In this document: piece by piece, positions 1 through 26,900 of the stretch
How positions within the stretch are numbered: position 1 is the stretch's first letter
Layout of the letters: every line of letters begins with the position of its first letter
Origin: a candidate division WOR-3 bacterium
GTDB lineage: Bacteria; Hydrothermota; Tepidihabitantia; SM23-42; JAOAFX01
Direction of reading: 5' to 3'
Length of the DNA stretch: 45,910 bases
Assembly: GCA_039802145.1 (NCBI GenBank)
Contig: JBDRWA010000001.1
Coordinates: 1-45,910 of the forward strand
Program-made: the position numbers and the translations under genes
The notes under the pieces: generated by a model
Database searches by the model: none
The model's input: the letters and a program-made list of their open reading frames with translations, nothing else
What the model was told of the DNA's origin: nothing

Positions 1-58
1 TAATTAATCCAACTGACAATGAATTAATTTTTAATAAAATTTAAATAAAGGATGCAAA

Positions 59-8757: not shown

Positions 8758-8762
8758 ATACA

Positions 8763-8846: not shown

Positions 8847-8866
8847 AAACCTATGAGGAGGTGTTC

Positions 8867-9253: not shown

Positions 9254-9258
9254 AATAA

Positions 9259-10440: not shown

Positions 10441-10453
10441 AACATTTTTATTG

Positions 10454-10735: not shown

Positions 10736-10772
10736 GCTCCTTTCCTTTTTTAAATAATTGATTAACTTTGTA

Positions 10773-12302
10773 TCATAATGGGGTACAACTTATAACTGTA
10801 TCTCTGAGGAAATCGTCGTCTTTCTCCGGATAGTCTACAACATAATGGAGTCCCCTTGATTCTTTTCTAATAAGACAGGAGGTCACAATCAATGCGGCAA
10901 CATCAACCATATTCCTTGATTCAGCATTTATCAGATGAACGCCGGATTCAAACTGTTTGCAATATTCATTCAATATTTCATTCACTTTTTTTAACCCTTC
11001 TTCAGTGCGTATAACATTGACATACTGTGACATCAGTTGTTTTACCTGAATTTTAAAATCAGGACCTGTACTAACCGAAGGCTTTAATCTTGGAATTCTT
11101 GCCAACTTTAATGCTTTGATATTTGATACTCTCTTTGCTGCCCTTGAGGCGAATACAAGTGCCTCAAGCAAAGAATTGGAGGCGAGGCGATTCCCCCCAT
11201 GGACTCCGGTGCAAGCACATTCACCAAGGGCAAATAATCTTTTTATGGATGTTTCACCCCAAGTGTTCACTTTGATACCTCCGCATAGATAATGGGCTGC
11301 AGGAACCACAGGTATTGGTTCCCTTGTAATATCAATGCCCCAGCGCAGGCAGGTTTCATAAATTGTAGGAAACCTGTTTTTTACAAAATCCGATTTTAAA
11401 TGGGTGACATCAAGTAATACATATGGGTCATTGTTGTTAAGCATCTCTGTGACACAGGCGCGAGCAACTACATCCCTGGGTGCAAGATTTTCCATCGGGT
11501 GGTATTTTTTCATAAATGGTTCACCTGACCTCGTCTTCAATATTCCCCCTTCACCACGTACTGCTTCAGAAATCAAGAATGACCTGCCGTCAATTTTAAT
11601 ATTATAAACTGCGGTGGGATGGAATTGGACAAATTCCATATTGGCGATCTCGGCGCCAGCCCGATAAGCCATTGCGATGCCATCACCTGTTGCGATGGGC
11701 GGATTTGTGGTATGTTCATAAACCTGTCCTATACCACCGGTTGCTATGACAGTAGCACTTGCCAATATAGTCTCAACACGCTGGGTATTAACATCCAGAT
11801 AATAAATGCCAAGGCATTCTCCATCCTGAACTATCAAATCCAGCACCACTTCATTTTCACTGATTGTAATATCGTATTTCTTTGTTTCCTCAATTAGTAC
11901 ACGTTCAATCTCTTGTCCGGTATAATCACGGGCATGAACAATTCTACGATGCGAATGTCCACCCTCCTGACCGAGTTCAAAATTTCCATCTTTATCAACT
12001 GAGAATCTACAGCCCATTTGATATAATTCCTTAACCAATCCAGGACCTTCTTTGACCATAATTTCTACAGCATCCTTATGGCATAGGCCGTCACCTGCCT
12101 TTAAAGTGTCCTCAATATGGCTTTCAAACGAGTCATCTTTCCCAAAGACCGCAGCAATACCTCCCTGGGCATAATTGGTGTTTGACTCTGCTTTGTGTTT
12201 TTTAGTGAGTATCAGTACACTCCCATATTTTGCACTCTTGATTGCGAAGGTTAGACCCGCAACCCCGGAGCCCACAACCAGAAAATCCACCTTTCTGGGC
12301 AT
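10773..12302 (-). CDS. nadB: L-aspartate oxidase
   Basis: FAD motif DFLVVGSGVAGL, plus HAHRR-like GGHSHRRI and FLISEAVRGEGG. I prefer the ATG at 12302 to the TTG at 12305. Confidence 0.9.
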   Translation of the reverse strand: MPRKVDFLVVGSGVAGLTFAIKSAKYGSVLILTKKHKAESNTNYAQGGIAAVFGKDDSFESHIEDTLKAGDGLCHKDAVEIMVKEGPGLVKELYQMGCRFSVDKDGNFELGQEGGHSHRRIVHARDYTGQEIERVLIEETKKYDITISENEVVLDLIVQDGECLGIYYLDVNTQRVETILASATVIATGGIGQVYEHTTNPPIATGDGIAMAYRAGAEIANMEFVQFHPTAVYNIKIDGRSFLISEAVRGEGGILKTRSGEPFMKKYHPMENLAPRDVVARACVTEMLNNNDPYVLLDVTHLKSDFVKNRFPTIYETCLRWGIDITREPIPVVPAAHYLCGGIKVNTWGETSIKRLFALGECACTGVHGGNRLASNSLLEALVFASRAAKRVSNIKALKLARIPRLKPSVSTGPDFKIQVKQLMSQYVNVIRTEEGLKKVNEILNEYCKQFESGVHLINAESRNMVDVAALIVTSCLIRKESRGLHYVVDYPEKDDDFLRDTVISCTPL

Positions 12303-12308
12303 CAAAAC

Positions 12309-12336
12309 ATTTTATATAAATTTTTCTGAATGTCAA
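12309..12336 (-). promoter_or_regulatory. Sigma70-type promoter, leaderless geometry (TTGACA-16-TAAAAT, 6 nt to ATG at 12302)
   Basis: Read on the reverse complement: -35 at 12336..12331, -10 at 12314..12309. Confidence 0.6.
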
Positions 12337-12381
12337 TAATAATTTTTAATTCACTTATTTTTAAATTGAAACCTGCTTCCC

Positions 12382-12409
12382 TTGAAAATTTGCAGAAAAT
12401 TAATATAAT
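12382..12409 (+). promoter_or_regulatory. Sigma70-type promoter, leaderless geometry (TTGAAA-16-TATAAT, 5 nt to ATG at 12415)
   Basis: -35 at 12382..12387, -10 at 12404..12409. No SD. Confidence 0.65.
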
Positions 12410-12414
12410 TACCT

Positions 12415-13518
12415 ATGAAGATATTACTCCTTGCGGTACCAATTGGTGCAGGGCATATTAAGGCCGCGACCGCAATAAAACAGGGAATAGAAAAATTATC
12501 AATTGAATCTCAGGTCAGGCTTGAAAATTGCTTTCAATGGGTTCTGCCGATTTATGGATTTGCATATAAAAATATATATGAATTCTGTCAGAAGAATGCG
12601 GTCTGGTTGTTGAAGATTTTTTATCAAGGGATGGGTATAAAGGCTGGTAGTAACAGAACACTTTATGCCTTCCACAAGATAACTGCTTACAAATTTCCCT
12701 TATTACTTGAGGAATACAAACCCGACTACATATTATGTGCCCATTTTTCTCCTGCTTATTATTCTGCGTTATATAAAAATTTTTTCAATTACAGAATTGG
12801 AGTTGTGGTTACAGACTATTATATCCATCCCCACTGGGTAAATAAAGAAGTAGATGACTATTTTATTCCGAATGAAGATTTAGTCAGCCAATTATTGAGT
12901 TACGGTGTTAAGGAGTTACAGGTATATCCGTTTGGGATTCCAGTGAATATCGCTCTTGAAAGTGAAATTGATAAGGATTCAGCGCGCAGGAGATTTGGTC
13001 TATCAGCAAATAGGATTTCGGTGGTAGTAATGGGTAGCAAGGTGTTTGGTGGTGAGTGGTTTGAAATCGTTCAAGAAATTGTGGACTTTGATTATGATTT
13101 ACTTGTCTTATGTGGTGAAAACAAAGAGGCAATGGAAAAGATAAAAAAACTTCATGGACGGGCAAATCTAAAGATTTACGGAATGGTTGATAGAATTCAG
13201 GAATTGATTGCGGTATGCGATATTCTAATCACCAAGGCAGGCGGCATTACAACAACTGAAGCAACCAAGGCAGGTCCGTGTTTATTGTTCGCCAATTCAA
13301 TACCAGGATTGGAAGATAAAAACGAAGAATTTTTTATCAGGCATAAGGCAGGATTGAAGATAACGAAAGAGAATGCAAAACAAATTATGGCTGATCTCCT
13401 TTCACATCCAGAAAAAGTCGTGGAGATGAAGGCAAATCTTTTAAAGCTTGGCAAAAAAAACTCTGCCCTGAACATTGCCCAGACGATCTTAAAAAGGGGA
13501 CAGGCAACTTTTTTGTAA
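12415..13518 (+). CDS. MGDG-synthase/UgtP-like (GT28) diacylglycerol glycosyltransferase
   Basis: 367 aa. The N-terminus MKILLLAVPIGAGHIKAA and the C-terminal ILITKAGGITTTEA are typical of the MurG/MGDG-synthase fold. The last 8 codons lie inside the left inverted repeat of the RAYT cassette. Confidence 0.7.
   Translation: MKILLLAVPIGAGHIKAATAIKQGIEKLSIESQVRLENCFQWVLPIYGFAYKNIYEFCQKNAVWLLKIFYQGMGIKAGSNRTLYAFHKITAYKFPLLLEEYKPDYILCAHFSPAYYSALYKNFFNYRIGVVVTDYYIHPHWVNKEVDDYFIPNEDLVSQLLSYGVKELQVYPFGIPVNIALESEIDKDSARRRFGLSANRISVVVMGSKVFGGEWFEIVQEIVDFDYDLLVLCGENKEAMEKIKKLHGRANLKIYGMVDRIQELIAVCDILITKAGGITTTEATKAGPCLLFANSIPGLEDKNEEFFIRHKAGLKITKENAKQIMADLLSHPEKVVEMKANLLKLGKKNSALNIAQTILKRGQATFL
13491..13513. 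repeat. Left inverted repeat of RAYT cassette
   Basis: AAAAAGGGGACAGGCAACTTTTT. It overlaps the stop region of the glycosyltransferase gene. Confidence 0.9.
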
Positions 13519-13523
13519 AATTT

Positions 13524-14186
13524 ATGCCCAGAATAGCTCGTGGAATAGCCGACGGACTGACCTATCATATACTTAACCGAGGTAATGGTGGTCAGACGGT
13601 TTTTAGAAAAGACCAAGACTACAGGGTTTTTATTGAGTTAATGTCCTATGCAAAGTCTGAATTCAATATCAAAATATTTGCTTATTGTTTAATGCCTAAT
13701 CATTTCCATGTGGTTTTGATGCCGACAAAAGGTGAAAATTTAAGTAATTTTATGCATCTCGTTATGACGAGCCATGTGCGGCGCTATCATAAACATTATG
13801 GCACGAGCGGACATATATGGCAGGGAAGGTATAAAAGTTTTATTATCCAGGAGAATAACTATTTGTTAACAGCATTAAGATATGTTGAAGGAAACCCCGT
13901 GAGAGCGAATTTGGTGAAGTCAGCAATAAAATGGGAATGGTCATCGCATAGAGAGAGGATTAAATTAAAACCCAATGAATTATTGGCTGAACCCCCTATT
14001 GATTTACCATCCAACTGGACTGAATTCGTTGATGAACCATTATCTTTAAATGACTTAGAAAAAATAAGGAACAGCGTTATTCGCCAAGCCCCCTATGGTG
14101 AATTAGAATGGCAGATTAGTATCTGTAAAAATTTGAACTTAGAATCAACAATTAGACCAAGAGGCAGGCCTGCAAAATGGAAATAA
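13524..14186 (+). CDS. REP-associated tyrosine transposase-like (IS200/Y1 HUH) protein
   Basis: HUH motif LMPNHFHVVL and catalytic-Tyr helix LRYVEGNPVRANL. Length and layout are typical of single-copy RAYT-type genes. Confidence 0.8.
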   Translation: MPRIARGIADGLTYHILNRGNGGQTVFRKDQDYRVFIELMSYAKSEFNIKIFAYCLMPNHFHVVLMPTKGENLSNFMHLVMTSHVRRYHKHYGTSGHIWQGRYKSFIIQENNYLLTALRYVEGNPVRANLVKSAIKWEWSSHRERIKLKPNELLAEPPIDLPSNWTEFVDEPLSLNDLEKIRNSVIRQAPYGELEWQISICKNLNLESTIRPRGRPAKWK

Positions 14187-14207
14187 AAAGTTGCCTGTCC
14201 CCTTTTT
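14185..14207. repeat. Right inverted repeat of RAYT cassette
   Basis: AAAAAGTTGCCTGTCCCCTTTTT. It ends 1 nt before the ATG of the next gene. Confidence 0.9.
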
Positions 14208-14531
14208 ATGACCAGAGAAGAATTTGAAAAGATCGTTGTAGAAGTTTTGAAAAGATTACCAAAGATTTTAAGTGAGAAACTGATAAATGTTGAGATAGTG
14301 ATTGAAGAAGAACCCATTCCACAAAAATCCCTTTTGGGTTTGTATCAGGGAGTGCCGTTGAGGAGAAGGGGAATATGGTATGGAAACGTTTTGCCTGATA
14401 AGATAACACTCTTTAAAGCGAATATTGAACGTCTGACAAACAATGAACAAGAAACAAAAGAACTCGTCTATGAAGTCTTGATTCACGAAATCGGTCATTA
14501 CTTCGGATTTGATGAAGAAGACCTCTTGTAA
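14208..14531 (+). CDS. Small zincin-like metallopeptidase family protein
   Basis: 107 aa with HEIGHYFGFDEEDL near the C-terminus, as in the Zincin_1/DUF1025 family. No SD; the ATG abuts the inverted repeat. Confidence 0.7.
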   Translation: MTREEFEKIVVEVLKRLPKILSEKLINVEIVIEEEPIPQKSLLGLYQGVPLRRRGIWYGNVLPDKITLFKANIERLTNNEQETKELVYEVLIHEIGHYFGFDEEDLL

Positions 14532-14533
14532 AT

Positions 14534-14631
14534 GGGTTGGGAAATGGGATAGGGTCGGAAGGATGGTTGATGGGTTGGGGTTTGGAATCTGGTATTGAAT
14601 TTGGTTAAATGGTAATTGGTAACTGGTTAAA
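14534..14631 (+). repeat. Degenerate G-rich tandem array with 7-nt phase (about 14 units), intergenic
   Basis: GG/GGG recurs every 7 nt, clearest at TGGTTAA/ATGGTAA/TTGGTAA/CTGGTTA (14602..14629). The 5' end is GGGTTGGGAAATGGGATAGGG. Confidence 0.7.
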
Positions 14632-14634
14632 TAT

Positions 14635-16878
14635 TTATCCATTTAACAATCTCTTCGCTTCCTGAGAATCCGGAATTATCTTCAAGACCTTCTGTAAAAT
14701 TTTTCGGGCGTCAGTTTTATTATTGTGCTCAAGACAGCTTTTTGCAAAATTTATCGCTTCGGTCTCAAACTGACTCAAAATTTTAAATCTCATATCCACT
14801 GACCAGTTATCAAAATTCTTTTTGAATGGTTCGCCGCGGAATAATTTAAATGCCCGTAAAAATTCTTTTCTTGCAAACTCCCACTCACCAGCCCGCTCTA
14901 ATGCCTTTGCCCTTGTAAGGGTCTCATTGAATTCCTGATAGTCAGTGGTAAAATATATTCCTTGATTGATTAACACTGAAGTGCCACTTCCACGAGATAT
15001 TTCCAATAAATGCGTCGGTATTTTTAATGTTTTTTTAATTCGGACCAATAGATGTGAAAAATTGCGCGATGCATTTTCACTTCCGGGCCAGAAATTCGCA
15101 TAAACTTTGTCCAAGTTTACAGATTTTTTTGGCTCCGTTGCATAAAAACTGAGAAATATTATGAATGTTTCATCTTTGGGCGCAAGTTCAACTCTCATAT
15201 CCTTACCGCACTTATCAATAATCAACTTACCCAAGAATTTGATTTCATAGACTGGAACATTTGTGTTAAATATGGGCAATCTTATTATTGCTCGCGGGAG
15301 TCTGGTCGGTTTTCCTTTTTCAAGATATTTGGTTACTACTTGAGGAAAGTAGAATATGTATTGATAGAAAAAACCCATAAGATTCCTGGATTTGGCATAT
15401 GAAAAAGCCCTGCGGTATGAACCTTCTATCATTATGTTCAAAAGTCGTGTGACAGGCATTGTATCTTTGTTCAATTGGGTATCAATTTTATTTTCTGAGA
15501 AATATTCTGTCAGCAAGATATATCTATTAAACACTGATTTTAGACCTCTGCCGGCGAAAGGTAGAATTTTCTTGATAATTTCAATCGCTTGTTTTTGTCT
15601 GCCAAGGCTACAATAAGCACTGGCAATAATTGAATATGCTGCAATAATATGTTTAAAAAGCTCCTCTTTTTTTGAAACAGTGATTGCCTCGTGGCAAAGA
15701 GAAATGGCTCGATTAGGTTTGCCGCTCACCAAAGACATCATTGCTTCAAAGATAAATCTTTTAGGCTGATGCGCCCACCATTGAAAATTTTCCATACTAC
15801 GGAGTAGATTAAGCGCTTTGCGATACTCTCCCTTGTAGAACAATATTTGCGCTAAGTCATCCATAATAAATTGTGCATCTTCCTCACTTGCTACTTTCAG
15901 AGTCTGGCTATACCAGTACTCAGCTTTACGGAAATTTTCTAAAAATATGTATAAGGCGCCTATATTATGGAGTAGGTCATAGGACCAAATATTTTTCCTT
16001 TTTCTTAACAACGTATGACATATTTTTGCTACCTCAGACGCATTCTTTATGCGGTTTAGATACACATTAGCAATACCTTCGCAGATTAAGAGGGTAATTT
16101 TAAGATAAAGCAGATCGCGGGACATCCTGATTTGGGTTTTTAATAAGGTTTTTAATTGTTTTATTCGTTTTAGCATTTCCTCGGGTTTGTTTATATATGA
16201 TAATACCGCTAAATAAGTAACTCCAATACGTAGCAATGAATAGCATAATCTATTCTTAATACACCATTTATAGATTTCTTTTATCTGTTTACGATAAATA
16301 GATAAAGGAACTTTTCCATACAATAGGATATATTTTTCCATTCTTCTCTTGATATTTAAAAGGGAATCTGGTACGTGGATGATTAGATCATTCTGTGGAA
16401 GAGCGGGTATTGAATTTAAGAGAGATGCAGCAGTTTGATAATCTTTTATTTCTATGCAACTTTTTGCACCTTCAATTTTCTTGGTCGCTTCAGTAGACCA
16501 TGAACAATTGTTAGGAAATTCTTTTAGTATTTTTCCATTTTCAAACCCTGCCAGGCCGTAGCGTTTCCATACTGACCAAATACCTTTTACCGAAATTTTA
16601 ATTCCTCTGCTGTGAAGAATATCTCTTGCTTTTCTTACAGTCAGAGCCGGACAACTTTCTTTAAGAAAAACAATCGTTTTTTCCAGATCAGTAGATATAC
16701 GGTTCCAGGGTCGCCTGTAGTCTGAATAAAACCAGGTTTTACCATATTTTTCATATGATTTTATCCACTTGTACAATGTCATGTAGTTCAGTCCAAACTG
16801 CCTTGCAGTTTTTCGCAACGATTGACCCTGTCTGATGTGGTATTGGACTATCTGAAACGAATAAGTTTTGTTACCCAT
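14635..16878 (-). CDS. Large regulator: N-terminal transposase-type paired HTH, central TPR-like solenoid, C-terminal winged-helix + BTAD (SARP-like)
   Basis: 747 aa. The N-terminus SLRKTARQFGLNYMTLYKWIKSYEKYG...TVRKARDILHSRGIKISVKGIWSVWKRYGL resembles IS630-type HTH pairs. TPR-like helices fill the middle. The C-terminus ...LLVRIKKTLK...YFTTDYQEF...LFRGEPFKKNFDNWSVDMRFKIL... fits an OmpR-type wHTH followed by BTAD. Confidence 0.7.
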   Translation of the reverse strand: MGNKTYSFQIVQYHIRQGQSLRKTARQFGLNYMTLYKWIKSYEKYGKTWFYSDYRRPWNRISTDLEKTIVFLKESCPALTVRKARDILHSRGIKISVKGIWSVWKRYGLAGFENGKILKEFPNNCSWSTEATKKIEGAKSCIEIKDYQTAASLLNSIPALPQNDLIIHVPDSLLNIKRRMEKYILLYGKVPLSIYRKQIKEIYKWCIKNRLCYSLLRIGVTYLAVLSYINKPEEMLKRIKQLKTLLKTQIRMSRDLLYLKITLLICEGIANVYLNRIKNASEVAKICHTLLRKRKNIWSYDLLHNIGALYIFLENFRKAEYWYSQTLKVASEEDAQFIMDDLAQILFYKGEYRKALNLLRSMENFQWWAHQPKRFIFEAMMSLVSGKPNRAISLCHEAITVSKKEELFKHIIAAYSIIASAYCSLGRQKQAIEIIKKILPFAGRGLKSVFNRYILLTEYFSENKIDTQLNKDTMPVTRLLNIMIEGSYRRAFSYAKSRNLMGFFYQYIFYFPQVVTKYLEKGKPTRLPRAIIRLPIFNTNVPVYEIKFLGKLIIDKCGKDMRVELAPKDETFIIFLSFYATEPKKSVNLDKVYANFWPGSENASRNFSHLLVRIKKTLKIPTHLLEISRGSGTSVLINQGIYFTTDYQEFNETLTRAKALERAGEWEFARKEFLRAFKLFRGEPFKKNFDNWSVDMRFKILSQFETEAINFAKSCLEHNNKTDARKILQKVLKIIPDSQEAKRLLNG

Positions 16879-16887
16879 AGTGGAAAC

Positions 16888-16915
16888 ATTGTAGCCAATT
16901 TTTCAAAAAAGTCAA
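16888..16915 (-). promoter_or_regulatory. Sigma70-type promoter, near-leaderless (TTGACT-16-TACAAT, 9 nt to ATG at 16878)
   Basis: Read on the reverse complement: -35 at 16915..16910, -10 at 16893..16888. No SD. Confidence 0.65.
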
Positions 16916-17051
16916 GAATTCAATAACAAATTGCATGAAATATTGAGAAATCAATCTTTTCAATAAATGCTTGTGGATAAACTCAGACACAATTCCATTT
17001 ATAATTAAGTATAAGAAAGTTAAATTTTAAAAAATTAGAAAGGAGGTTCAA

Positions 17052-18611
17052 ATGTTATTAGGTTTTGCTTTTGTCTTTACCAGTATACTATTTGCACAGA
17101 CCGAAAGGTGGGTCTACCGGTATAACGGACCTGGAAATAGCCATGACTATGCTCATTCAATTGTCTATGGAATGGATGGGAATATCTATGCGGCGGGACA
17201 GAGTTTTGGTGGAGAACCAGCGCGGAGTGATTTCACAGTGATAAGTTTGACTTCTACAGGAACCCAGAGATGGGTTTATCGTTATCCTAATCATTACGAA
17301 GATAATGCGTGGGCGATCACATATGGGCAGGATCATAATATTTATGCAGCTGGATATGTCAATGGGACCGCTATGGATTTAGCAATTATAAGTCTAACAT
17401 CTTCTGGAGCTCTAAGGTGGATTTATACACACAACGGTCCTTTAAATAGCGATGATTATGCAGTGTCAATCATTCAGGGTTCTGATGGGAATATATATGC
17501 TGCTGGCAGAAGTGGTGGAATAAGTACTCACGATTTATTCGTTGTGAGTCTAACACCTTCTGGAACTGAAAGATGGGTCTATTACTATGATGGGTCCGCA
17601 CACTTGCTTGACGCGGCTTATTCCATAAGTTATGGCCCAGATGGAAATTTATACATTGCTGGTCATGGCGGCGGTGGAGCAGGGCGTCATTTCATTGTTT
17701 TGAGTCTTACAACATCTGGTGAATTAAGATGGGTTTATGATAACGGAGGCACTAATGATTGGATGAGCTATGCTTATTCACTTACATTTGACCAATTGGG
17801 TAATGTCTATGCGTGTGGTTATATCTGGTATACTGGTAGTTGGTCTGATTTCACGGTGGTCAAACTGGACACAAGTGGTAACGAGCAGTGGATTTACCGG
17901 TATAATAGTCCCTGGAATGGTTATGAAGGTGCCTATTCAATTGTCTATGGTGCGGATGGAAATATCTATGCAGCGGGCGCAGGTACATCTGCTAACACGA
18001 GTTTCAACGATTTGCTGGTTATCAGCCTCACTCCTGCTGGCGAAGAGAGATGGATTTATTATTATGGCAGTCCTTCCGGTCTGAATGATGGTGCCGAAGA
18101 GATCGTGTACGGAGATAATGGGAAACTCTACATCACGGGTTATTGCACAGTTAGTTCTAATGCCGAAGATTGGGATATGATTGTAATTGAAATGGACACA
18201 AATGGTGTGGCAAACTGGATATACAGATACGATGGACCTGGGCATTATAAAGACCAGGGTGAAGGAATTGTTTTTGGCTCTGACAATAATATTTATGTGG
18301 CTGGATGGAGTTGCGGAGCAAACCAGGATTTTCTTATTTTGAGTTTGACTGCATCATTAGATATTGCAGAAACATTAATGCAATCAAAATTTGTCTATCC
18401 ATCAACTCATCGTGCAGTTCCCAATCCCTTCTTCTCCTTCACTTCTATAGAAGGGTATGAAAATGAGCAGTTTCAACTTTTTGATGCATCAGGACGATAT
18501 ATTGGTGTGTACAAAGGTGACCGCATCGGCGATAATCTTCCTGCTGGATTATATTTTGTAGTATCTGATGACAAAAGTATTCTGCCTGCACGGGTGGTGA
18601 AGATAAGATAA
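17052..18611 (+). CDS. Secreted SBBP-type beta-propeller repeat protein with T9SS C-terminal sorting domain
   Basis: 519 aa with signal-like MLLGFAFVFTSILFAQ. About eight ~50-aa repeats (RWVYRYNGPG...YA.SIVYG.DGNIYAAG...DF.VISLT..G). Tail PNPFFSF...LFDASGR...LPAGLYFVV...VVKIR. AGGAGG SD. Confidence 0.85.
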   Translation: MLLGFAFVFTSILFAQTERWVYRYNGPGNSHDYAHSIVYGMDGNIYAAGQSFGGEPARSDFTVISLTSTGTQRWVYRYPNHYEDNAWAITYGQDHNIYAAGYVNGTAMDLAIISLTSSGALRWIYTHNGPLNSDDYAVSIIQGSDGNIYAAGRSGGISTHDLFVVSLTPSGTERWVYYYDGSAHLLDAAYSISYGPDGNLYIAGHGGGGAGRHFIVLSLTTSGELRWVYDNGGTNDWMSYAYSLTFDQLGNVYACGYIWYTGSWSDFTVVKLDTSGNEQWIYRYNSPWNGYEGAYSIVYGADGNIYAAGAGTSANTSFNDLLVISLTPAGEERWIYYYGSPSGLNDGAEEIVYGDNGKLYITGYCTVSSNAEDWDMIVIEMDTNGVANWIYRYDGPGHYKDQGEGIVFGSDNNIYVAGWSCGANQDFLILSLTASLDIAETLMQSKFVYPSTHRAVPNPFFSFTSIEGYENEQFQLFDASGRYIGVYKGDRIGDNLPAGLYFVVSDDKSILPARVVKIR

Positions 18612-18627
18612 AACCAGTCCCTTTCTG

Positions 18628-18659
18628 TCCCCTGGGGTGCCTGAAGGCACCCCAGGGGA
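18628..18659 (+). terminator. 14-bp GC-rich hairpin after cargo gene (TCCCCTGGGGTGCC-tgaa-GGCACCCCAGGGGA)
   Basis: Perfect stem read directly. The downstream T-tract is weak (TTATACATT). A near-identical copy is at 23594..23623. Confidence 0.6.
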
Positions 18660-18772
18660 TTATACATTGCGCTTAGAAGCAGCTCATTAGATAAATCTGA
18701 AAGGAGATATGGTATTTGGGTTTAGGTTTGGAAATGGAAACTGTCTGTATTTATTTGTTTGGACTGCAAAAC

Positions 18773-18833
18773 AATGTAGGGCAAGGCTTTAGCCTTGCAA
18801 CAAAAATAAGCAAACCTAAAGGTTTGCCCTACA
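18773..18833. repeat. Small nested palindromic element (TGTAGGGCAA...TTGCCCTACA arms enclosing CAAGGCTTTAGCCTTG hairpin)
   Basis: 10-nt inverted arms at 18775..18784 and 18824..18833, with an inner 7-bp hairpin. The first 26 nt recur (25/26) inside a coding region at 31947..31972. Confidence 0.7.
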
Positions 18834-18867
18834 ATGTAATTAACCATAAAACCATCTACCCACCCAA

Positions 18868-21102
18868 CTATCCAACCATCAAGCCATCCAACAATCCCTT
18901 CACTTCTTGTGAATCCGGAATTATCTTCAAGACTTTTTGTAGTATTTTTCGTGCATCATTTTTGTTCCCGTGTTCAAGGCAGCTCTTGGCAAAATTTATC
19001 GCCTCAGTCTCAAGCTGCGTTAAAATCTTAAATCTCATGTCCACTGACCAGTTATCAAAATTCTTCTTAAACGGCTCACCGCGGAATAACTTGAATGCCC
19101 GTAAGTATTCTTTGCGAGCGATACCCCACTCCCCTGCCCGCTCCAGTGCCTTTGCCCGGGCTAAAGTTTGTCCAAATTCCTGATAGTCGGTGGTAAAATA
19201 AATGTTTTGATTGATTAGATAAGATTCCCCGTTCTGTCTTTTTATCTCTAAATAATGGGCAGGAATTTTAAGAGCCCTTTTTATTCGGACTAAACTGTGG
19301 GAGAAAATCCTTGCTGGATTCTTACTTTTTGACCAGAAATTTTCGTAGAGTTCATTTAAATTCAATGATTTTTCTGGTTCATTGATTCTGGTGATAATAA
19401 ACAAAAGTATTGCACTATCCTTTGGCGAAAGATGGAATTTGTGATATCTTTGATTGCGGAAAATGGTTATTTTGCCTAATAAATTTATATGGTAAACATC
19501 GGTTTTTGTATTAAATATCGGCAGGCGCAGAATTGCCTTAGGTAGATAAGTTGGTTTATTCTTTGCAATCCTTTTCTGAACAAAATCGGGGTAGAAGAAT
19601 AGATAACGATAAAAATAAAACAGGATGCCTTTCCTGACGGCAAACTGATATGCCCCCATATAACCCCTGTTTTTTAATACCCAGGCAAGTTTGATTGTAG
19701 ATAATTTGAAAAATTCTTTATTTTGTGGAATTTTTTGCAGGAGGATGTTGGTAATCAACAACTGCCTTTTCATATTTCTTTTTTTCAAAAATTTCTTCAA
19801 GTTAGCCAATAATGACTTTGCTTTTTCTTCCTCCCCAAAACACATATATGCACTTGCCATTGCCAGATAGGCATTGTTGATATCGGTCAGAAGTCCTGCT
19901 CCTTTTGAGGCATTTAGGGCATTCTGTGCTAAGATAAATGCCTCTGATGGTCTACCTTCAATCAAGGCAAAAAGGGACCGGAATCTTGATAACTGGGCAT
20001 CTTTTGCCCAATCATAAATTTCTGCTTCATTTATAAGTTTCAATGCAGTATTTTTATCGCACCTCAATAAATGAACATAAATCGCAAGCAGCGTCTTCAA
20101 CCTTTTCTTTCTTTGCTCGTCAATACCTTCAAGGGATTTGAGAAGCAGTTTTTCTGCAGTATTATAATCTTCAAGGTCTATGAACTGGACCGCAAGGTCA
20201 TAGAGGAATTCATAAAATGGACTTTTGTGTTGTGATACAAGATGATAGCAATGACGGGCAAGACGGAATGCTTCAGTCAATTTTAACATTTGCACCAGGG
20301 TGTGGCATTTTGAAATAAGTAAGGTAAAACGAATTGGCATTAAATCTTTTGCTTTTCTATCATTGTCAGGTAGAGATTTTTCAATTTTTTCTGTCCATCT
20401 CTTTTGTTCTTCAGGATTGCCAAGCCAGGATAATGCAACAAGCAAAGCCATACCAATTCTTAATGCCGAATAATTCCACTCATTCTTGATAGATTTTTTA
20501 TAGAGTATTTTTGCTTTTTTGATATATTCCGACAATGGGATTTTGCCGAATTCCATTGTCAATCTTTCAATCTTGCGCCTTGTATTCAAGAGTTTTTCCG
20601 GTAATTTTAAAACTAATTCATTCTTTGGTAGCGGGGGTAAGGAATTTAAAATTATCGCTGATTCTTTCATTTTGCCATCATTAAATAGCCGCTCTGCATC
20701 TTCTAACTTTAACTTTGTTTCCTGAGAAGGAATAATGAATTCGGTAAAGTCATTGCAAATGTTCAAACGATCAAAGCCAGAATATCCATATCTTTTCCAG
20801 ATATTCCATATTCCACGGCTGGTGATTTTTATTTTCTTCTTGAGCAATACCCTCCGTGTCTGTTCCAGCGTGAGCCAGGGATATTTTTCTTTATACTTTA
20901 TGACGAAATTTTCAATATACTTTGGGGAGCGATTCCAGGGTTTAAAAAGCGGTTGTGTTTTAAATTTTTTAAAATACTTCAACCATTTATAAACCGTCTG
21001 ATAATGGAGATTAAATTTTTTTGCGGTCTTTCTGATTGAAGATTTATTTTTAAAATATTCGTCAATGACCCCATAAAATAATTCTCTTTGTTTGTTATGC
21101 AT
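18868..21102 (-). CDS. Paralogous large regulator: paired HTH, TPR-like, winged-helix + BTAD
   Basis: 744 aa, collinear with 14635..16878. By manual count, 90 of 100 aligned residues are identical across the BTAD region starting at IYFTTDYQEF (ten residues before the C-terminus), and the rest is much more diverged. Confidence 0.7.
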   Translation of the reverse strand: MHNKQRELFYGVIDEYFKNKSSIRKTAKKFNLHYQTVYKWLKYFKKFKTQPLFKPWNRSPKYIENFVIKYKEKYPWLTLEQTRRVLLKKKIKITSRGIWNIWKRYGYSGFDRLNICNDFTEFIIPSQETKLKLEDAERLFNDGKMKESAIILNSLPPLPKNELVLKLPEKLLNTRRKIERLTMEFGKIPLSEYIKKAKILYKKSIKNEWNYSALRIGMALLVALSWLGNPEEQKRWTEKIEKSLPDNDRKAKDLMPIRFTLLISKCHTLVQMLKLTEAFRLARHCYHLVSQHKSPFYEFLYDLAVQFIDLEDYNTAEKLLLKSLEGIDEQRKKRLKTLLAIYVHLLRCDKNTALKLINEAEIYDWAKDAQLSRFRSLFALIEGRPSEAFILAQNALNASKGAGLLTDINNAYLAMASAYMCFGEEEKAKSLLANLKKFLKKRNMKRQLLITNILLQKIPQNKEFFKLSTIKLAWVLKNRGYMGAYQFAVRKGILFYFYRYLFFYPDFVQKRIAKNKPTYLPKAILRLPIFNTKTDVYHINLLGKITIFRNQRYHKFHLSPKDSAILLFIITRINEPEKSLNLNELYENFWSKSKNPARIFSHSLVRIKRALKIPAHYLEIKRQNGESYLINQNIYFTTDYQEFGQTLARAKALERAGEWGIARKEYLRAFKLFRGEPFKKNFDNWSVDMRFKILTQLETEAINFAKSCLEHGNKNDARKILQKVLKIIPDSQEVKGLLDGLMVG

Positions 21103-21111
21103 CTGCGGTAA

Positions 21112-21140
21112 ATTATATACTATAATGCAGAATATGTCAA
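21112..21140 (-). promoter_or_regulatory. Sigma70-type promoter, near-leaderless (TTGACA-17-TATAAT, 9 nt to ATG at 21102)
   Basis: Read on the reverse complement: -35 at 21140..21135, -10 at 21117..21112. Same geometry as the paralogue. Confidence 0.7.
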
Positions 21141-21248
21141 GTAATTATAATATGTATCGCTGTAACCAGTAATTAACTATTGCGATTGTGTTGTGTGTGG
21201 TTAATTTGGGACACATTTATATGTAAATATTTAGAGAAAGGGGGTATT

Positions 21249-23573
21249 ATGAAAATTGGAATTTGGTTTGGTATGTTCTTAATCGTTTCTTTTGTTCATT
21301 CAGCTAACCTCCCCTGGACCTGGCAGAATCCATTACCTGAAGGTAATGAATACACTGATGTCTGTGTAATCAACGAAAATATTATTTTTGTTGTTGAAGA
21401 AGAGGCAGGAACCATTTTAAAGACGACAAATGGTGGCTTGGCCTGGGATGTAAGTTTCACACCTTATCCTGATTCCCAGCCTGGTTATTATGAACTTTAT
21501 GGTATTGATTTTCCTGATTCGCTAACTGGCTATGCAGTCGGTAATTTCTGGGGTTCAAACTGGAATACAACATATCATGCTGTAATTTTAAAAACCACAA
21601 ACCAGGGTGCAACCTGGACATTCCAGTATCTTGGCGCACAGAATACCTGGCTTATGGATGTTGATTTTCCGCAGGGAAATAATCAGGTCGGATATGCAGT
21701 AGGGAGAAATGGAATGATATTAAAAACGACAAATGGTGGGCAGAGTTGGGTTCAGCAAAATTCTGGCACAACCTATGAATTGCTTGCAGTACATTTTCCC
21801 GTTGATGCAAATACTGGATATGTTGTTGGTGGGAATAGAACTACAACCCCGGTAATCTTAAAAACAACAAACGGTGGTTCCAACTGGAATAGCCAGACAA
21901 GTCCAGCAAATGTGACTTACTGGGATGTGTGTTTTATTGATAATCAGAACGGTTATGCAGGGGGGTATACATTAGGTAGTGGTGGCAATGGTACAATTAT
22001 TAAAACAACCAATGGAGGTAGTACGTGGCAACAGATATGGTATCAACAATACCGTGAAATTTATTCAGTACATTTTTTGAATGCCCAGGTCGGGTATGCC
22101 GGTGGTTGGGCACACTCAAATTCGGGCTGGAGTGGAAGTTTCATTATGAAAACAACAAACGAAGGTAGTAGCTGGACTCCAGTCTTTCTTCCGAAATTTA
22201 TGACCTATGTTTTACCGATTGGTTTTGCCAATACACTGACTGGTTATGCTGCAGGATATGTCTATGACCAGAATGGTGGCCATGGCCAACTTTTGAAAAC
22301 TACGGATGCGGGCACATCCTGGATTTTCTTAAATACAGGTCCTGAAGGAATTTTTTGGGCTGTTGATTTTCCGGAGAGCGACCAAATTGGTTATGCGGTT
22401 GGCGATGCAGGATATATATACAAGACAACTGATGGAGGTGCAACCTGGGTACAGCAAACAACAGGAACCGGGCAGGTATTCTATGATGTTGATTTTCTTG
22501 ATAATCAACTCGGTTTTGCAGTTGGTGCTAATGGAACATTTTTCAAGACAACAAACGGTGGTAATGTCTGGACTCCAAAAAATGCAAATACTACAGCCAC
22601 CCTGTATGCAGTGAAATTCATAAATTCGCAAATTGGTTACATTGCTGGACTGGGAAGTACTGGTGGAGTGATAATGAAGTCTACGGATGGAGGTGATAAC
22701 TGGATAAGTCAGACCATCCCTAACAATAATACTTATCGGGCAATTCAGGATTTATTTTTCTTTAATGCGGATACTGGTTATGCAGTTGCGGGTGCCACAC
22801 CTTCTTATGGTGGTGCAGTTGGACTTGTATATAAAACCACTAATGGTGGTCAGACCTGGGTTGAAAACTATGCACCATCTTCAGCAAATTTCTATGCCAT
22901 AGATTTTCCAGAAAATTCACAGGTTGGTTATATTTCAGGTTTAATGGGAGGTACCGGGACTTATAAAATGATAAAGACAACCAATGGGGGCAATTCCTGG
23001 ACAGGACAAAGCCTGGGGGGTGGTATTGTTCCCGCTGTTGGTGTATCCTTTGCAGATAATCTCATTGGTTATGCGGTATTCAGACCTGGTGGATACCATA
23101 TGATGATGAAGACAACGAATGGTGGTTCAAACTGGTTTGCTATCAATTCTCTGACCTGGCACGGTTATGAGGATATCCAGGCGATCAATGCAAATGTCGT
23201 TTATGCAGTTGGCAGGGGCGGAATGATCCGCAAGACAACAAATGGTGGAAGCGTTTGGATTGAGGAAGAAAAAGGTGATGGAGATATAAAGGTGGATAAT
23301 CATTATCAAAGTTTGTGGGTCTATCCTAATCCATTCAGGAACAATGTCCATATCAGATGCAGGATGCATGATACAGGATACATGATAAAGATATACGATG
23401 TTTCGGGACGTGTTGTAAAATCTTTCAATCTTGAATCCTGTATCCTGAATCATGAATCCAGTATCACCTGGTTCGGCGATGATAAGCTGGGACGTGAATT
23501 GCCTGCAGGTGTTTATTTTATCGTGCCTGAGGATAAAAGTTCGTCGCCCGTGCGGGTGGTGAAGATAAGATAA
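21249..23573 (+). CDS. Secreted BNR/Ycf48-like double beta-propeller protein with T9SS C-terminal sorting domain
   Basis: I prefer the start at ATG 21249 (AAGGGGG SD, then signal-like MKIGIWFGMFLIVSFVHSA) over the track start 21180. There are 14 repeats of the (I/L)xKTTNGGxxW motif. Tail NPFRNN...IKIYDVSGR...LPAGVYFIV...VVKIR. Confidence 0.85.
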   Translation: MKIGIWFGMFLIVSFVHSANLPWTWQNPLPEGNEYTDVCVINENIIFVVEEEAGTILKTTNGGLAWDVSFTPYPDSQPGYYELYGIDFPDSLTGYAVGNFWGSNWNTTYHAVILKTTNQGATWTFQYLGAQNTWLMDVDFPQGNNQVGYAVGRNGMILKTTNGGQSWVQQNSGTTYELLAVHFPVDANTGYVVGGNRTTTPVILKTTNGGSNWNSQTSPANVTYWDVCFIDNQNGYAGGYTLGSGGNGTIIKTTNGGSTWQQIWYQQYREIYSVHFLNAQVGYAGGWAHSNSGWSGSFIMKTTNEGSSWTPVFLPKFMTYVLPIGFANTLTGYAAGYVYDQNGGHGQLLKTTDAGTSWIFLNTGPEGIFWAVDFPESDQIGYAVGDAGYIYKTTDGGATWVQQTTGTGQVFYDVDFLDNQLGFAVGANGTFFKTTNGGNVWTPKNANTTATLYAVKFINSQIGYIAGLGSTGGVIMKSTDGGDNWISQTIPNNNTYRAIQDLFFFNADTGYAVAGATPSYGGAVGLVYKTTNGGQTWVENYAPSSANFYAIDFPENSQVGYISGLMGGTGTYKMIKTTNGGNSWTGQSLGGGIVPAVGVSFADNLIGYAVFRPGGYHMMMKTTNGGSNWFAINSLTWHGYEDIQAINANVVYAVGRGGMIRKTTNGGSVWIEEEKGDGDIKVDNHYQSLWVYPNPFRNNVHIRCRMHDTGYMIKIYDVSGRVVKSFNLESCILNHESSITWFGDDKLGRELPAGVYFIVPEDKSSSPVRVVKIR
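23354..23394 (+). repeat. In-frame 7-nt-phased array in T9SS tail, loop 1 (CAGGATG/CATGATA/CAGGATA/CATGATA/AAGATAT)
   Basis: Units read directly; they encode RCRMHDTGYMIKI just before the IYDVSGR strand. Confidence 0.75.
23432..23466 (+). repeat. In-frame 7-nt tandem array in T9SS tail, loop 2 (TGAATCC/TGTATCC/TGAATCA/TGAATCC/AGTATCA)
   Basis: Five contiguous heptamers read directly; they encode LESCILNHESSI. Confidence 0.8.
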
Positions 23574-23593
23574 AAACCCAACCCCCTTTCTGG

Positions 23594-23623
23594 CCCCTGG
23601 GGTGCCTGTGGGCACCCCAGGGG
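23594..23623 (+). terminator. 13-bp GC-rich hairpin after cargo gene (CCCCTGGGGTGCC-tgtg-GGCACCCCAGGGG)
   Basis: Perfect stem. The stem sequence is identical to the hairpin at 18628..18659. It is followed by an A-run rather than a T-run. Confidence 0.55.
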
Positions 23624-23715
23624 ATTAAAAAAATGTTAGTTTATTTACAAAATATTTTTAGAACATAAATTGAGATGTTTTGTATGAAACTGAATAAAAA
23701 ATTTCTCAAAAGACA

Positions 23716-23749
23716 TTCTGGTATTCTGGTAATTACCGGAATACCAGAA
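23716..23749. promoter_or_regulatory. 34-nt near-perfect palindrome upstream of the giant S8 gene promoter (candidate operator)
   Basis: TTCTGGTATTCTGGTAATTACCGGAATACCAGAA: 16 of 17 positions are symmetric and the remaining one is a T/G pair. It ends 30 nt upstream of the -35 box. Confidence 0.45.
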
Positions 23750-23779
23750 CAGCAATTTGATTATAAAAAGATTTTCTTA

Positions 23780-23807
23780 TTGACAAAGCAAAAATAATTA
23801 ATATAAT
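23780..23807 (+). promoter_or_regulatory. Consensus sigma70 promoter (TTGACA-16-TATAAT) for the giant S8 peptidase gene
   Basis: -35 at 23780..23785, -10 at 23802..23807. A roughly 90-nt leader follows, with two GGAGG sites. Confidence 0.7.
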
Positions 23808-23905
23808 TTATCATCTGAAAGGAGGTGAGAATAAATGAATTAAAATATGGGGATGCTGCAGTACAGGATCAATTCAAATAAAGAGAATTGAAAAAGGAGG
23901 TGTGT

Positions 23906-26900
23906 ATGTTTAATTTGTTGCTTGCGTTTCTTTTTGTAGCAAGGCCAGTGATACCGGGTAAGATGACTCCGGAACTGGCGCAGATTCTGCATAATACATC
24001 AGATAACGAAAAGATACTCGTTATCGTCCATATGGCTACAGAATATCCTTATGACCAGCTTCGGGGAATGACACCGGTTGAAAAGTGCAAGGTATTTGAG
24101 AATATTGCCTTCAATTCCCAGCGTGAAATTGTTGAATATTTAAAGTCACTCCCTGACGAGTTTGCTGAAGTCGGTGGTCAATTCTGGATATTCAATGGAT
24201 TCCATTTAAAAGCAACAAAGGCATTAATCTATGAACTTGCCAAGCGTGATGATATCTGGTTTATCTGCCACAATGGGATAGTAAAACTTGATGCTGATGT
24301 TCTGCCTGAAGCAGATATTACTGGTCGTGCTCCAGAATGGAACATCAAGAAAATAAAGGCGGATTCTTGCTGGGCAGAGGGTTATTCTGGTTCAGGGATA
24401 ATTCTTGGTCATATTGATACCGGCGTATTAACTACCCATGAGGCACTTACCGGTAAATGGCTCTCTCCTTACTGGATTGATGGTGTGAGTGGACAGGCTA
24501 ATCCTTATGACGACCATGGACATGGGACTCATACTATGGGGACTATCTGTGGTGGTGATGGCCCTGGTCCGTTTGCGAATGATGTTGGTGTTGCATATGG
24601 TGCCCGGTATATTCCAACCAAGGCATTTGATTCTGGTGGTTCAGGACAGTATGCCTGGATCGATACCTGTATGCAATATCTGGCGAGATTGAAGTCTCAA
24701 GGTGTTGATATCCGGGCGATTGGTAATTCCTGGGGCAGTTCGGGTCAGACCGATTTACACTGGTGGGATATAATTCTGAACTGGAAAAATCTTGATGTAT
24801 TTCCTGTATTCTCCCAGGGGAATAGTGGTCCAAATTCAGGAACGGCAAATGCACCAGGAAATTATCCCACTGCAATAGGTGTTGGTGCAACCGATTCACT
24901 TGATGTGATTGCAAGTTTCTCGTCCCGTGGCCCTGCACCAAATCAAAGTCCCTGGAATGATCCACAATACTGGTATTATCCTACCTGGAATCTTTTAAAA
25001 CCCGATGTCTCTGCCCCGGGTGTCGCAGTCCGTTCTTCATATAATAATGGTGGATACACATCTATGCAGGGAACTTCTATGGCATCACCCCATGTCACCG
25101 GCGGAACTGCAATTCTCCTTGAGAAAAATTCCACTCTTACTCCTGACCAGTTATTCGAAATCTTTTATACCACCTGTGACCAGCCATCAGGTGGAGGTCC
25201 CTATCCTAACAATAACTATGGCTGGGGTAGAATAAATCTCTATCGTGCATTACAACAGACACCGCCGCCAACTCCTCACCATAATATTCGTGTTCAGACA
25301 ATAGTTGTCCCTGGAACAAGGGAGCGTGAATATACTGTTATCCAACCCCAGGTTCGTTTTAAGAATGCAGGAACCTTTGATGAAAACAATATCCCTGTGG
25401 TATGCCAGATAAAGAGGGGCACGACAACCGTTTATACCAGCAACCGCACGATTGGTTCACTCCTTCAGAATAAGGATACACTGATAACTTTTGATAATTT
25501 CACAGTTGGTTCCTGTGGCAATCATTATACTGCTTTTGGCATAGCCAACCTTTCAACCGATACTCTCCATTATGATGACACATTGAAAAAGAATTTTGTT
25601 GCAGCAAGGGTCTATGAAGTCACAACGCCGGATTGTGATGCCTGGAAGATTGCTAATGCGGACTCTGGAACTCCACCCGCGCCAACGAATCCTGCTTGGA
25701 TTCCTGCCACAACAACCGAGAAACAGCAGATCTCTGCACTTGATAATCAGTGGTGGGTAACGGCAGGCTCTCCACAAGATACCACACATATGGATGTGCA
25801 GTTATATGGATTCCGATTGACCGGAGTTCCTGATACCGCCATTGAGGAGATGACCCTTGAGTGGTGGGGTCATCATGGAAGTGGCGTGCGGGACCAGTTA
25901 AGATTTAGGCTTTGGAACACCCTGACGAGTTCCTATTCATTAAAGATTACCCAACAGAATGTCACTTCAGATCAATTATTCAGCATAATTATTCCTGACG
26001 ATTCTGCTGAAGCCTATGTGGGTAATGATGGTTTCTTATATGCCTGTGTGGCGAATGATGTCTATATCAAATCTTCCTGTCCATTGCTCTTTACTCATAA
26101 TAAAAACAAGAGTTACTTCATCGGCGACATTGTAACTGGTGGAGATATTGGAACCTGGATTGGTCGGGTAATGGGTGTGAATCTTTATGCACCACCTGAC
26201 TACGACGAATATGTAAAGATTGATGGCGAAAAATTGCAAGCGGTGAATGGGAAATATCACCTCAGTATAAATGAGATGCTCCAGGAAATCAGTTATATTG
26301 ATGAAGTAACACTGTATGCAGTTGACCACCCTGCTGGAAGTGATATTTATCCTCATGAGGCACTCCTCTGGCCCGGTTATCAAGGGTTGAAAATTTTCAA
26401 TGGTTATGAAAAGCCGATTTACAAGGTATTCAATGAAAAGGGTCAGGATATTACTGATTATCTAAATGCAATTGATAGGAATTTTGCTCCATTTGAATTA
26501 ACAGGACTTGTGGGATTTGCCAAGCCTTTCACAATTACACTTGACCTTGGGGAATTGAATGATCCGGATAATACAGTCCTTTGCCTCTATGGTAGCACAC
26601 GTTTTCCTGATGCGGGAAAGATTAAGGAAGTGAGTGATATCTACGAGGCCTACAAAAAGGGCATGAAGGTTCAAAATCCGACTGTTGAAGTTTATAATAA
26701 CGGCAAGTGGCAGAAGATCAAATCCTGCGGTATGCCTGCGGGTCATAAAAAGGTAGTTACCTATCCGCTCTTTGATGAAAATGGTAAGTCAATCTTCAAA
26801 GGCAAAGACTATAAACTAAGAATTACATTCTACCATGAAGTTTATCTTGATAAAATCTGGATTACCACAGATACAGATAACAATTATCGCATTGCGGCAC

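Follow-up and report, generated by a model that had tools for sequence, protein, structure and literature searches.

Two adjacent modules pairing a predicted SARP-like sensor-regulator with a putative type IX secretion cargo gene in a candidate division WOR-3 bacterium

The DNA analysed here, referred to as the window, is a stretch of 45,910 nt from a candidate division WOR-3 bacterium (contig JBDRWA010000001.1). It contains two consecutive modules, each consisting of a large regulator gene on the minus strand and, divergent from it, a gene whose predicted product ends in a sorting domain of the type IX secretion system (T9SS). Regulator 1 (14635..16878, minus strand; 747 amino acids, aa) faces cargo 1 (17052..18611, plus strand; 519 aa), a protein with a signal peptide judged by eye, SBBP/delta-60 beta-propeller repeats and a short T9SS type A sorting domain at residues ~455-519. 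Regulator 2 (18868..21102, minus strand; 744 aa) has the same architecture as regulator 1. It faces cargo 2 (21180..23573, plus strand; 797 aa as an open reading frame, ORF), which carries beta-propellers of the BNR/Ycf48/Sortilin type and a T9SS type A sorting domain at residues ~712-797. Each cargo gene is followed by a 44-nt hairpin element on the plus strand. Copy 1 (18619..18662) lies between the convergent cargo 1 and regulator 2 genes; copy 2 (23584..23627) lies behind cargo 2. A first-pass annotation of this DNA had described two tandem modules with minus-strand regulators of about 745 aa diverging from T9SS-tail genes, and the ORFs are as it described them.

The annotation had further suggested that regulator homologues elsewhere would stand beside T9SS-tail genes, and this is indeed the case. 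A genomic set of 75 loci was obtained by scanning one genome per species. Neighbours were taken from our own ORF calls; tails were detected with a sorting-domain hidden Markov model iterated from the window cargo tails and cross-checked with the curated TIGR04183 model. In 47 of the 60 determinable loci, the immediate upstream divergent neighbour has a sorting domain at its C-terminus. A further 13 divergent neighbours are truncated by contig ends, and in several of the exceptions a short ORF intervenes between the regulator and the tail gene. TIGR04183 (T9SS type A sorting domain) matches 50 of the 56 complete divergent partner genes. On the downstream side, tail genes are found at positions +1, +2 and +3 in 18/61, 13/48 and 4/40 cases, or 35/149 in total compared with 47/60 upstream (Fisher p=4e-13). 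A metagenome set of 78 loci, a few of which overlap the genomic set, yielded a similar picture: an immediate tail-gene partner in 40/55 loci, or 47/55 if a short ORF is allowed, against a downstream frequency of 10-18% (p=7e-14). Altogether, more than 100 related loci were assessed, and the pairing is directly observed in roughly 75-90% of them.

The partner proteins are varied and include S8 subtilases (9), C25 gingipain-like peptidases (5), BNR/Sortilin/Ycf48 propellers (7), FG-GAP proteins (5), and SBBP, Kelch and LVIVD proteins. The cargo body is homologous in about half of the regulator pairs that are at least 60% identical, as compared with about 10% of those at 30-40% identity. Regulator 2 orthologues in five other metagenome-assembled genomes (MAGs; loci L002-L006) retain a BNR cargo, yet several regulator pairs 60-66% identical have unrelated cargo. 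Tandem arrays of modules recur at L004, L017, L041, L044 and L076/L077. In a sub-clade formed by L001 and L008, a conserved 97-aa ORF separates the regulator from a 340-aa tail gene. The window itself also holds three S8 subtilase genes with T9SS tails (59-1648, 23888-27970 and 29349-32156) that have no adjoining regulator.

The assignment of the two window proteins to the T9SS was examined at both of their ends. The cargo 2 sorting domain scores above the cutoffs of TIGR04183 (25.6 bits; cutoff 23) and PF18962 (27.5 bits; cutoff 27), and that of cargo 1 gives a full-length, C-terminal match to TIGR04183 at 18.5 bits, under the cutoff. Their N-termini, judged by eye, are hydrophobic (MLLGFAFVFTSILFAQ and MKIGIWFGMFLIVSFVHSA). 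No SprA/Sov, PorV, PorU or GldKLMN protein is encoded in the window; from relatives only the regulator loci were retrieved. Outside the tail, the best match between the two cargo proteins is 27% identity over 170 residues (E=2e-4), a match between repeat proteins that makes no convincing case for homology; the bodies are thus unrelated, as had been annotated (SBBP versus BNR/Ycf48-like). An inverted repeat of 31 nt, whose arms are 81% complementary and separated by 41 nt, lies in the coding sequence for an insertion in the cargo 2 sorting domain (23356-23458).

Pfam searches with the two window proteins returned N-terminal matches to the transposase-type helix-turn-helix (HTH) domains HTH_28 and HTH_23, TPRs, and a weak BTAD match; among 26 family members, HTH_28 matches all 26 and BTAD matches 18 at E<=0.01 (best 1.2e-5). 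An AlphaFold model of regulator 2 computed from the family alignment (pLDDT 88.6, pTM 0.81) comprises two three-helix bundles (residues 1-104), helical repeats (127-525), a strand-helix-hairpin unit (535-638) and a helical C-terminus (639-743). The third of these segments is a predicted winged helix, with strands at 535-554, three helices at 560-611 and a beta-hairpin at 618-638, that superposes on AfsR. In a Foldseek comparison with the PDB, regulator residues ~530-744 match the SARP domain of AfsR chains from transcription activation complexes (8hvr_I, TM score 0.62 on the target, root-mean-square deviation 3.9 A over 209 columns; 8k60_J, TM score 0.60), and the match takes in the helices at 639-743, where BTAD lies. 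MalT domain III (1hz4) and NprR are matched as well, with TM scores of 0.60 and 0.46. A sequence search of the PDB with the family profile gave generic TPR matches only. Neither Pfam nor the fold reveals an NTPase or a catalytic transposase domain, the remaining ~630 residues being TPR and winged helix plus BTAD. From the Pfam hits, the AlphaFold model and the Foldseek matches, the regulator is predicted to be a protein of ~750 aa with a double HTH at the N-terminus, a TPR sensor in the middle and a winged helix plus BTAD at the C-terminus.

The family is small and uniform. An exhaustive HMMER search among 1.84 billion sequences yielded 184 cluster representatives (50% identity) at E<=1e-30, nearly all of them full-length at 720-790 aa. 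Titles of the 75 genomic loci read WOR-3, Stahlbacteria or TA06 almost throughout, the rest being loosely assigned MAG labels. Up to ~10 copies occur in one genome (CSMAG_2146, 9 loci with 10 genes; MFD12922 bin33, 8 loci). Regulator 2 itself has no database record; a protein 99% identical to it (P0001) stood in for it. A copy of regulator 2 at 99% identity carries a WOR-3 annotation.

Both window regulators have the near-leaderless consensus promoters that the annotation had noted, of the form TTGAC(A/T)-16/17-TA(T/C)AAT. That of regulator 1 is TTGACT-16-TACAAT (16888..16915, minus strand) and that of regulator 2 is TTGACA-17-TATAAT (21112..21140, minus strand), a 12/12 match; in both cases the ATG lies exactly 9 nt past the -10. 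The arrangement extends to the family: a TTGACA-16..18-TAnnnT sequence is found directly upstream of 71 of 74 regulators, and the first in-frame start is 6-12 nt past the -10 in 56 of these 71. Because of this proximity, the regulator mRNAs are probably leaderless. An additional sequence, (G/T)TTTCC(A/G)C(N2), is conserved between the -10 and the ATG throughout the family, across proteins 30-40% identical (16879-16887 and 21103-21111 in the window). This element could be an autoregulatory site or a context for leaderless initiation.

A different geometry is seen on the opposite strand, where the cargo gene starts ~135 nt from the regulator. The cargo 1 core promoter (16986..17005, plus strand) consists of a GACACA box, 8 nt and TATAAT, without a -35; that of cargo 2 (21210..21229, plus strand) consists of a GACACA box, 8 nt and TAAATA. 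It is followed by a GGGGG Shine-Dalgarno (SD) sequence at 21240-21244 and an ATG at 21249, which is likely the true start of cargo 2 rather than the ORF start at 21180. Among the 71 loci anchored on the regulator promoter, 45 show ACA[CT]A-N8-TAnnn[TA] on the opposite strand 72-80 nt from the regulator -35 (shuffled sequences: mean 0.14, maximum 2), and the pattern was replicated in 26 of 56 metagenome loci. The distance between the two promoters is constant within about 5 nt across proteins 30-40% identical. The cargo promoters typically combine a good -10 (at least 5/6 matches to TATAAT in 39/47) with a poor -35 (best match 3/6 or less in 41/47). The ACACA-N8 motif lies upstream of 58 of 89 tail genes that face a regulator, of only 9 of 108 tail genes without one and of 18 of 340 other genes. 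At the regulator-free S8 gene (23888), the promoter is instead a full TTGACA-16-TATAAT. A loosely conserved TGAAAAATC...TTTT element is present ~40 nt upstream of the ACACA box. Both window promoters also have a CRP-like palindrome (TGTG...CACA) surrounding the box, which was rejected because the orthologues lack it. Only specific, family-conserved promoter sites were taken as evidence, scans of the whole region being no better than shuffled sequences for sigma-70 promoters (37 vs 36.2) or terminators (10 vs 8.3).

In SARP-activated promoters, the activator binding site lies 8 bp upstream of the -10 and overlaps a poor -35 (PMC11301090). The position of the ACACA box, also 8 bp upstream of the -10, fits this type of activation and makes the box a candidate site for the C-terminal module. 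One might argue instead that the large protein is a repressor or an autoregulator, or that it acts mainly on distant targets and owes its position to joint duplication with the cargo gene. The N-terminal HTH and the conserved TTTCC(A/G)C sequence could then serve autoregulation, and the conservation of the DNA-reading helices among paralogues speaks against one-to-one specificity. We consider this quite improbable: the partner promoter has a conserved box at the activator position and no -35, the box follows regulator adjacency and not cargo type, the promoter-to-promoter spacing is held nearly constant among distant family members, and BTAD/SARP modules activate in all characterised cases (PMC11301090).

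The two modules share both of their extremities. Regulators 1 and 2 are 42% identical over their full length and identical at 87 of the last 100 aligned residues; the annotation had this high conservation right, with a slightly overstated count (90/100). It had also expected the ends to be better conserved than the interior at the nucleotide level, and in 50-codon windows identity rises from 37-55% in the interior to 78-81% over the last 100 codons. The conserved 3' block of regulator 1, which encodes the BTAD region, covers 14635..14920 (minus strand), as delimited by a direct repeat (14639-14912 / 18884-19157, 82% identical), codon-window identity and strain comparison; that of regulator 2 covers 18868..19265 (minus strand). 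A reading of the regulator ends as the product of recent gene conversion between the two copies was not borne out. Any two members of the regulator 2 clade, whether orthologues or paralogues, agree at 71-84% of the nucleotides in the last ~100 codons, with third positions at 0.47-0.74. The window pair (79%, third positions 0.57, range 0.56-0.60) is unexceptional among them. Where the two proteins have the same residue, the codon is also the same in a fraction of 0.56-0.61 in the end block; the interior mean is ~0.44. Conversion was rejected in favour of constraint, given the divergence at synonymous sites and the fact that all clade members resemble one another equally in this block. The block is also the most conserved part of the family, corresponding to the SARP-like DNA-binding and activation module, so that end conservation appears to be mainly functional constraint, on this module at one end and on the secretion-tail subtype at the other.

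At the cargo end, the tails read exactly as quoted in the annotation, and the last 74 coding nucleotides of the two genes are 76% identical. In other genomes, unrelated cargo proteins end in the same tail, '...YF(I/V)VPEDKS..PVRVVKIR', and this widespread PVRVVKIR subtype is found on many cargo types. On this account the resemblance of the two tails was rejected as a signal specific to the pair; such specificity is also contradicted by the cargo 1 sorting domain, which as a whole is nearest to those of ~500-aa homologues and not to that of cargo 2. Of the shared ends, only the 44-nt hairpin element looks specifically common to both window modules.

The two copies of this element are 93% identical and have, as reported earlier, identical stems (13 bp): 18629-18641 / 18646-18658 with a TGAA loop in copy 1 and 23594-23606 / 23611-23623 with a TGTG loop in copy 2. 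Within the window, the stem sequence is confined to these two sites (4 arm matches, 0.31 expected). The element follows the BNR cargo orthologues in L004 and L002 and cargo 1 in this species, and is absent after cargo 1 homologues elsewhere. Besides the two window copies it was found in L026, L004, L001 (one arm only) and L076-L078, and as a variant in L002, where one base is lost per arm and a G-U change is present with pairing kept. It has no U-tract, no Rfam match and no match in the scan of metagenome contigs. Its restricted distribution and these negative searches led us to reject a genome-wide repetitive extragenic palindrome (REP) or a known RNA. Our preferred reading is that of a sequence-constrained, terminator-like element common to both modules, which cargo 1 probably gained from a BNR-type module. 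GC hairpins after tail genes in general show a weak trend only (mean minimum free energy -13.5 vs -10.8, p=0.06). The element begins with CCCCCTTTCTGG (23584-23595 and 18619-18629), the reverse complement of the ribosome-binding region of cargo 2, AGAAAGGGGGT (21234-21244; 11 nt). This start also resembles the 3' end of 16S rRNA, and both observations apply to the L004 and L002 orthologues as well. As a general feature of cargo 3' ends, an anti-SD-like CCCCCTTTC box is weak (10/206 vs 9/469).

Evidence bearing on exchange of modules came from strain contigs that encode either an identical cargo 1 or the protein 99% identical to regulator 2, all of them short-read MAG contigs. Contigs L076 and L077, which are two independent assemblies, are 99-100% identical to the window over 7052-18980, about 80% identical over 18980-19220, and unrelated beyond. 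They carry three modules: past the breakpoint, the regulator body and the BNR cargo both differ from those of the window, and directly behind this cargo comes a third regulator, facing an S8 gene that differs as well. A 70-aa ORF is also found after the BNR cargo in these contigs. L026 belongs to another MAG and matches the window at ~98.5% over 16908-19265, falling to ~78% thereafter; in L018, a contig of that MAG, identity is ~98.5% across 14920-16900 but ~78% across 14635-14920, and the genes past the stop codon are different. L079 is 98.5% identical over 18769-27713; leftward of 18769 it carries housekeeping genes. Thus, the observed identity breakpoints (~14920, ~18980 against L076/L077, ~19265 against L026) all fall in or at the edge of a conserved 3' block, and the synteny break at 18769 coincides with a REP-like repeat: positions 18768/18769 are the edge of this repeat, where L079 synteny breaks and where L078, from the L079 MAG, ends.

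These patterns may be explained in two ways. The regulator-cargo pairing could be real without any exchange of cassettes, the conserved ends reflecting protein-level constraint plus a shared terminator and the mosaics reflecting assembly or binning artefacts at repeats. The diverged synonymous sites of the 3' block, its equal similarity throughout the clade and the wide occurrence of the PVRVVKIR tail all agree with this, and so do the contig ends that pile up at repeats and the recurrence of a REP-like doublet within one locus. Nonetheless, the independent assemblies L076 and L077 have the same three-module arrangement, blocks 78-80% identical seldom produce de Bruijn chimeras, and L026 keeps window-type sequence ~285 nt beyond the L077 breakpoint. 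It follows from the latter that at least two of the L026, L077 and L079 haplotypes are mutually recombinant, unless several independent assemblies are all chimeric. On balance, the absence of exchange is somewhat unlikely. That modules are exchanged or rearranged between strains by recombination at the regulator end is plausible and the mosaics are suggestive of it, if unproven. Hence, of the recombination substrate envisaged by the annotation, the regulator end stands, with three strain breakpoints in its favour; exchange of cargo alone does not, as the unit exchanged would appear to be the regulator body together with its cargo.

The REP-like doublet consists of two inverted units (GTAGGGCAA...TTGC, twice) at 18771..18837, just 3' of regulator 2. 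Similar inverted doublets of GTAGGGCAAGGCTTTAGCCTTGC and variants lie directly 3' of other regulator stop codons, following both extra regulators in L076/L077 (11716-11789 and 17006-17081) and occurring at L038 (6519-6586). A single unit is found at 31950-31972, inside or near the end of the subtilase ORF 29349-32156. A 220-aa homologue of REP-associated tyrosine transposases (RAYTs) is encoded at 13524-14186 on the plus strand (NF047646, 77.1 bits with a cutoff of 80; Pfam Y1_Tnp in the identical L076 gene); it is two genes from regulator 1, tightly packed and without flanking REPs. The reading that the regulator itself is a transposase-like protein, domesticated or active, and the modules mobile elements with cargo genes could draw on these repeats and on the nearby RAYT gene. 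It could also draw on the HTH_28, HTH_23, HTH_Tnp_1 and HTH_32 matches of the N-terminus, some family members being in fact annotated as 'transposase' by some sources. It is nevertheless very improbable, since the catalytic domain is absent, no terminal inverted repeats surround the modules, and orthologous loci retain the same cargo across genera.

We favour, with moderate confidence, the interpretation that the two neighbouring units in the window are copies of one lineage-specific regulatory module in which a SARP-like sensor-regulator activates the neighbouring predicted T9SS cargo gene, and that such modules recombine at the regulator end. The pairing, the promoter geometry, the mosaic identity patterns and, as a prediction, the protein architecture come directly from the data, whereas activation, signal sensing and recombination in the cell, as opposed to in assemblies, are what we infer from them. 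The regulator would be a cytoplasmic one-component protein made from a leaderless mRNA under a consensus sigma-70 promoter. Its central TPR superhelix would act as a variable sensor and detect a signal, upon which the C-terminal SARP module would bind the ACACA box, replace the missing -35 contact and recruit RNA polymerase. The neighbouring cargo gene would thereby be switched on and its product exported by the T9SS. Modules, as regulator body plus cargo, would be swapped by recombination at the conserved 3' block with the REP-like repeat behind it.

Several observations weigh against this interpretation. In both window regulators BTAD scores under the Pfam cutoff (19.5 and 14.9 bits; cutoff 22.1), Pfam Trans_reg_C gives no match by sequence, the winged helix being visible in the predicted model only, and the SARP module stands at the C-terminus (~530-744 of 744), the reverse of its N-terminal position in known SARPs. 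About one third of the loci lack the strict box pattern, many of them showing ACATA or ACATT variants at the same place. In the anchored alignment no second ACACA-like unit is conserved 11 or 22 nt upstream, only an A-rich 'AAAATGA'; the box is single, unlike the tandem repeats of SARP sites (~11-bp period). Contig ends cluster at repeats (14663 and 18768 in L078, 16900 in L018, 19653 in L026), and because the short-read contigs end at the same repeats, some mosaics, possibly including the window's own 18769-19265 join, could be assembly chimeras. Finally, both DNA-reading helices are conserved among paralogues, mean pairwise identity in the family being 0.63 in the recognition helix and 0.57 in BTAD, compared with 0.40 in the TPR region. 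With up to ~10 copies per genome, this conservation speaks against neighbour-specific action, and the dedication of each copy to its neighbour is deduced from position alone.

A speculative answer to the question of specificity is that the modules are cis-acting, self-contained expression cassettes, a possibility to which we assign a low probability. Because paralogues share their DNA-reading helices and promoter boxes, specificity would not come from DNA recognition. Transposases bind their own DNA co-translationally; likewise, a leaderless mRNA and a transposase-like N-terminal HTH might permit the nascent regulator to bind its own promoter region during translation, each sensor then controlling only the adjacent cargo. 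The module ends would be portable recombination junctions, formed by the SARP-coding block and the REP-like repeat at one end and by the tail and hairpin at the other.

The proteins to which the regulator is most readily compared are the SARP activators of actinomycetes (AfsR, ActII-ORF4, DnrI, EmbR). Both have a winged helix followed by BTAD, as predicted here and matched to the AfsR fold, and large SARPs also carry TPRs. SARP genes, too, lie beside their presumed targets, whose promoters pair a good -10 with a poor -35 and have their conserved box 8 bp upstream of the -10; the position of the ACACA box is the place of the downstream SARP protomer in AfsR-RNA polymerase complexes. In contrast to SARPs, the module described here is C-terminal, is joined to an additional N-terminal, transposase-like double HTH and comes without an NB-ARC or ATPase domain. 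It would act at a single box and from a leaderless mRNA, occurs in a WOR-3-type phylum and not in Actinomycetota, and has single T9SS cargo genes as presumed targets instead of biosynthetic clusters. MalT/STAND-type and RRNPP regulators (NprR, PlcR) similarly join a TPR superhelix, as ligand or peptide sensor, to a DNA-binding domain; the present family differs in that it lacks an NTPase and an HTH of the LuxR or XRE type and carries another DNA-binding module at its opposite end.

In Bacteroidota, polysaccharide utilisation loci have locus-dedicated sensors (hybrid two-component systems, SusR, and extracytoplasmic-function sigma/anti-sigma pairs), and PorXY-SigP controls T9SS genes. Such genomes generally contain many paralogous sensors, each beside its presumed secreted or surface targets, and T9SS tails are common to both settings. 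The proteins are unrelated, however, and here one regulator goes with one, sometimes two or three, cargo genes. With REP/REPIN-RAYT systems the locus shares GTAG-headed palindromes as intergenic inverted doublets and a nearby RAYT gene. Only the 18771-18837 doublet qualifies, the CCCCTGGGGTGCC hairpin being not GTAG-headed and confined to a few closely related modules.

Elsewhere in the window, a tRNA gene (35428-35500) directly precedes a 1048-aa ORF (35509-38655, plus strand) with a weak match to a methyl-accepting chemotaxis protein signalling domain (32 bits; cutoff 34.6) and a family 5 solute-binding domain. A 738-aa coiled-coil ORF (38630-40846, plus strand) stands in a region of very strong purine skew (GC skew 0.34-0.37, AT skew 0.30-0.36).

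The regulator-cargo module is real, general and apparently undescribed, and is best regarded as a new architectural variant of SARP-type activators. The annotation knew of no regulator class for T9SS cargo genes; in agreement with this, our literature searches found no publication combining the T9SS with SARP/BTAD proteins, or WOR-3/Stahlbacteria with the T9SS. To our knowledge, almost nothing is known of gene regulation in WOR-3 and related uncultured phyla, and control of individual T9SS substrates is known only via global systems in Bacteroidota. Experiments are conceivable because a cultured WOR-3 isolate exists (PMC12285271). If our interpretation is true, regulons in this lineage would be predictable from MAGs alone by means of the promoter code (leaderless regulator, ACACA-N8-TATAAT target). 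SARP-type activation would reach well beyond the actinomycetes, in a new domain order, and the modules would offer a testable case of secreted-protein repertoires that vary between strains.

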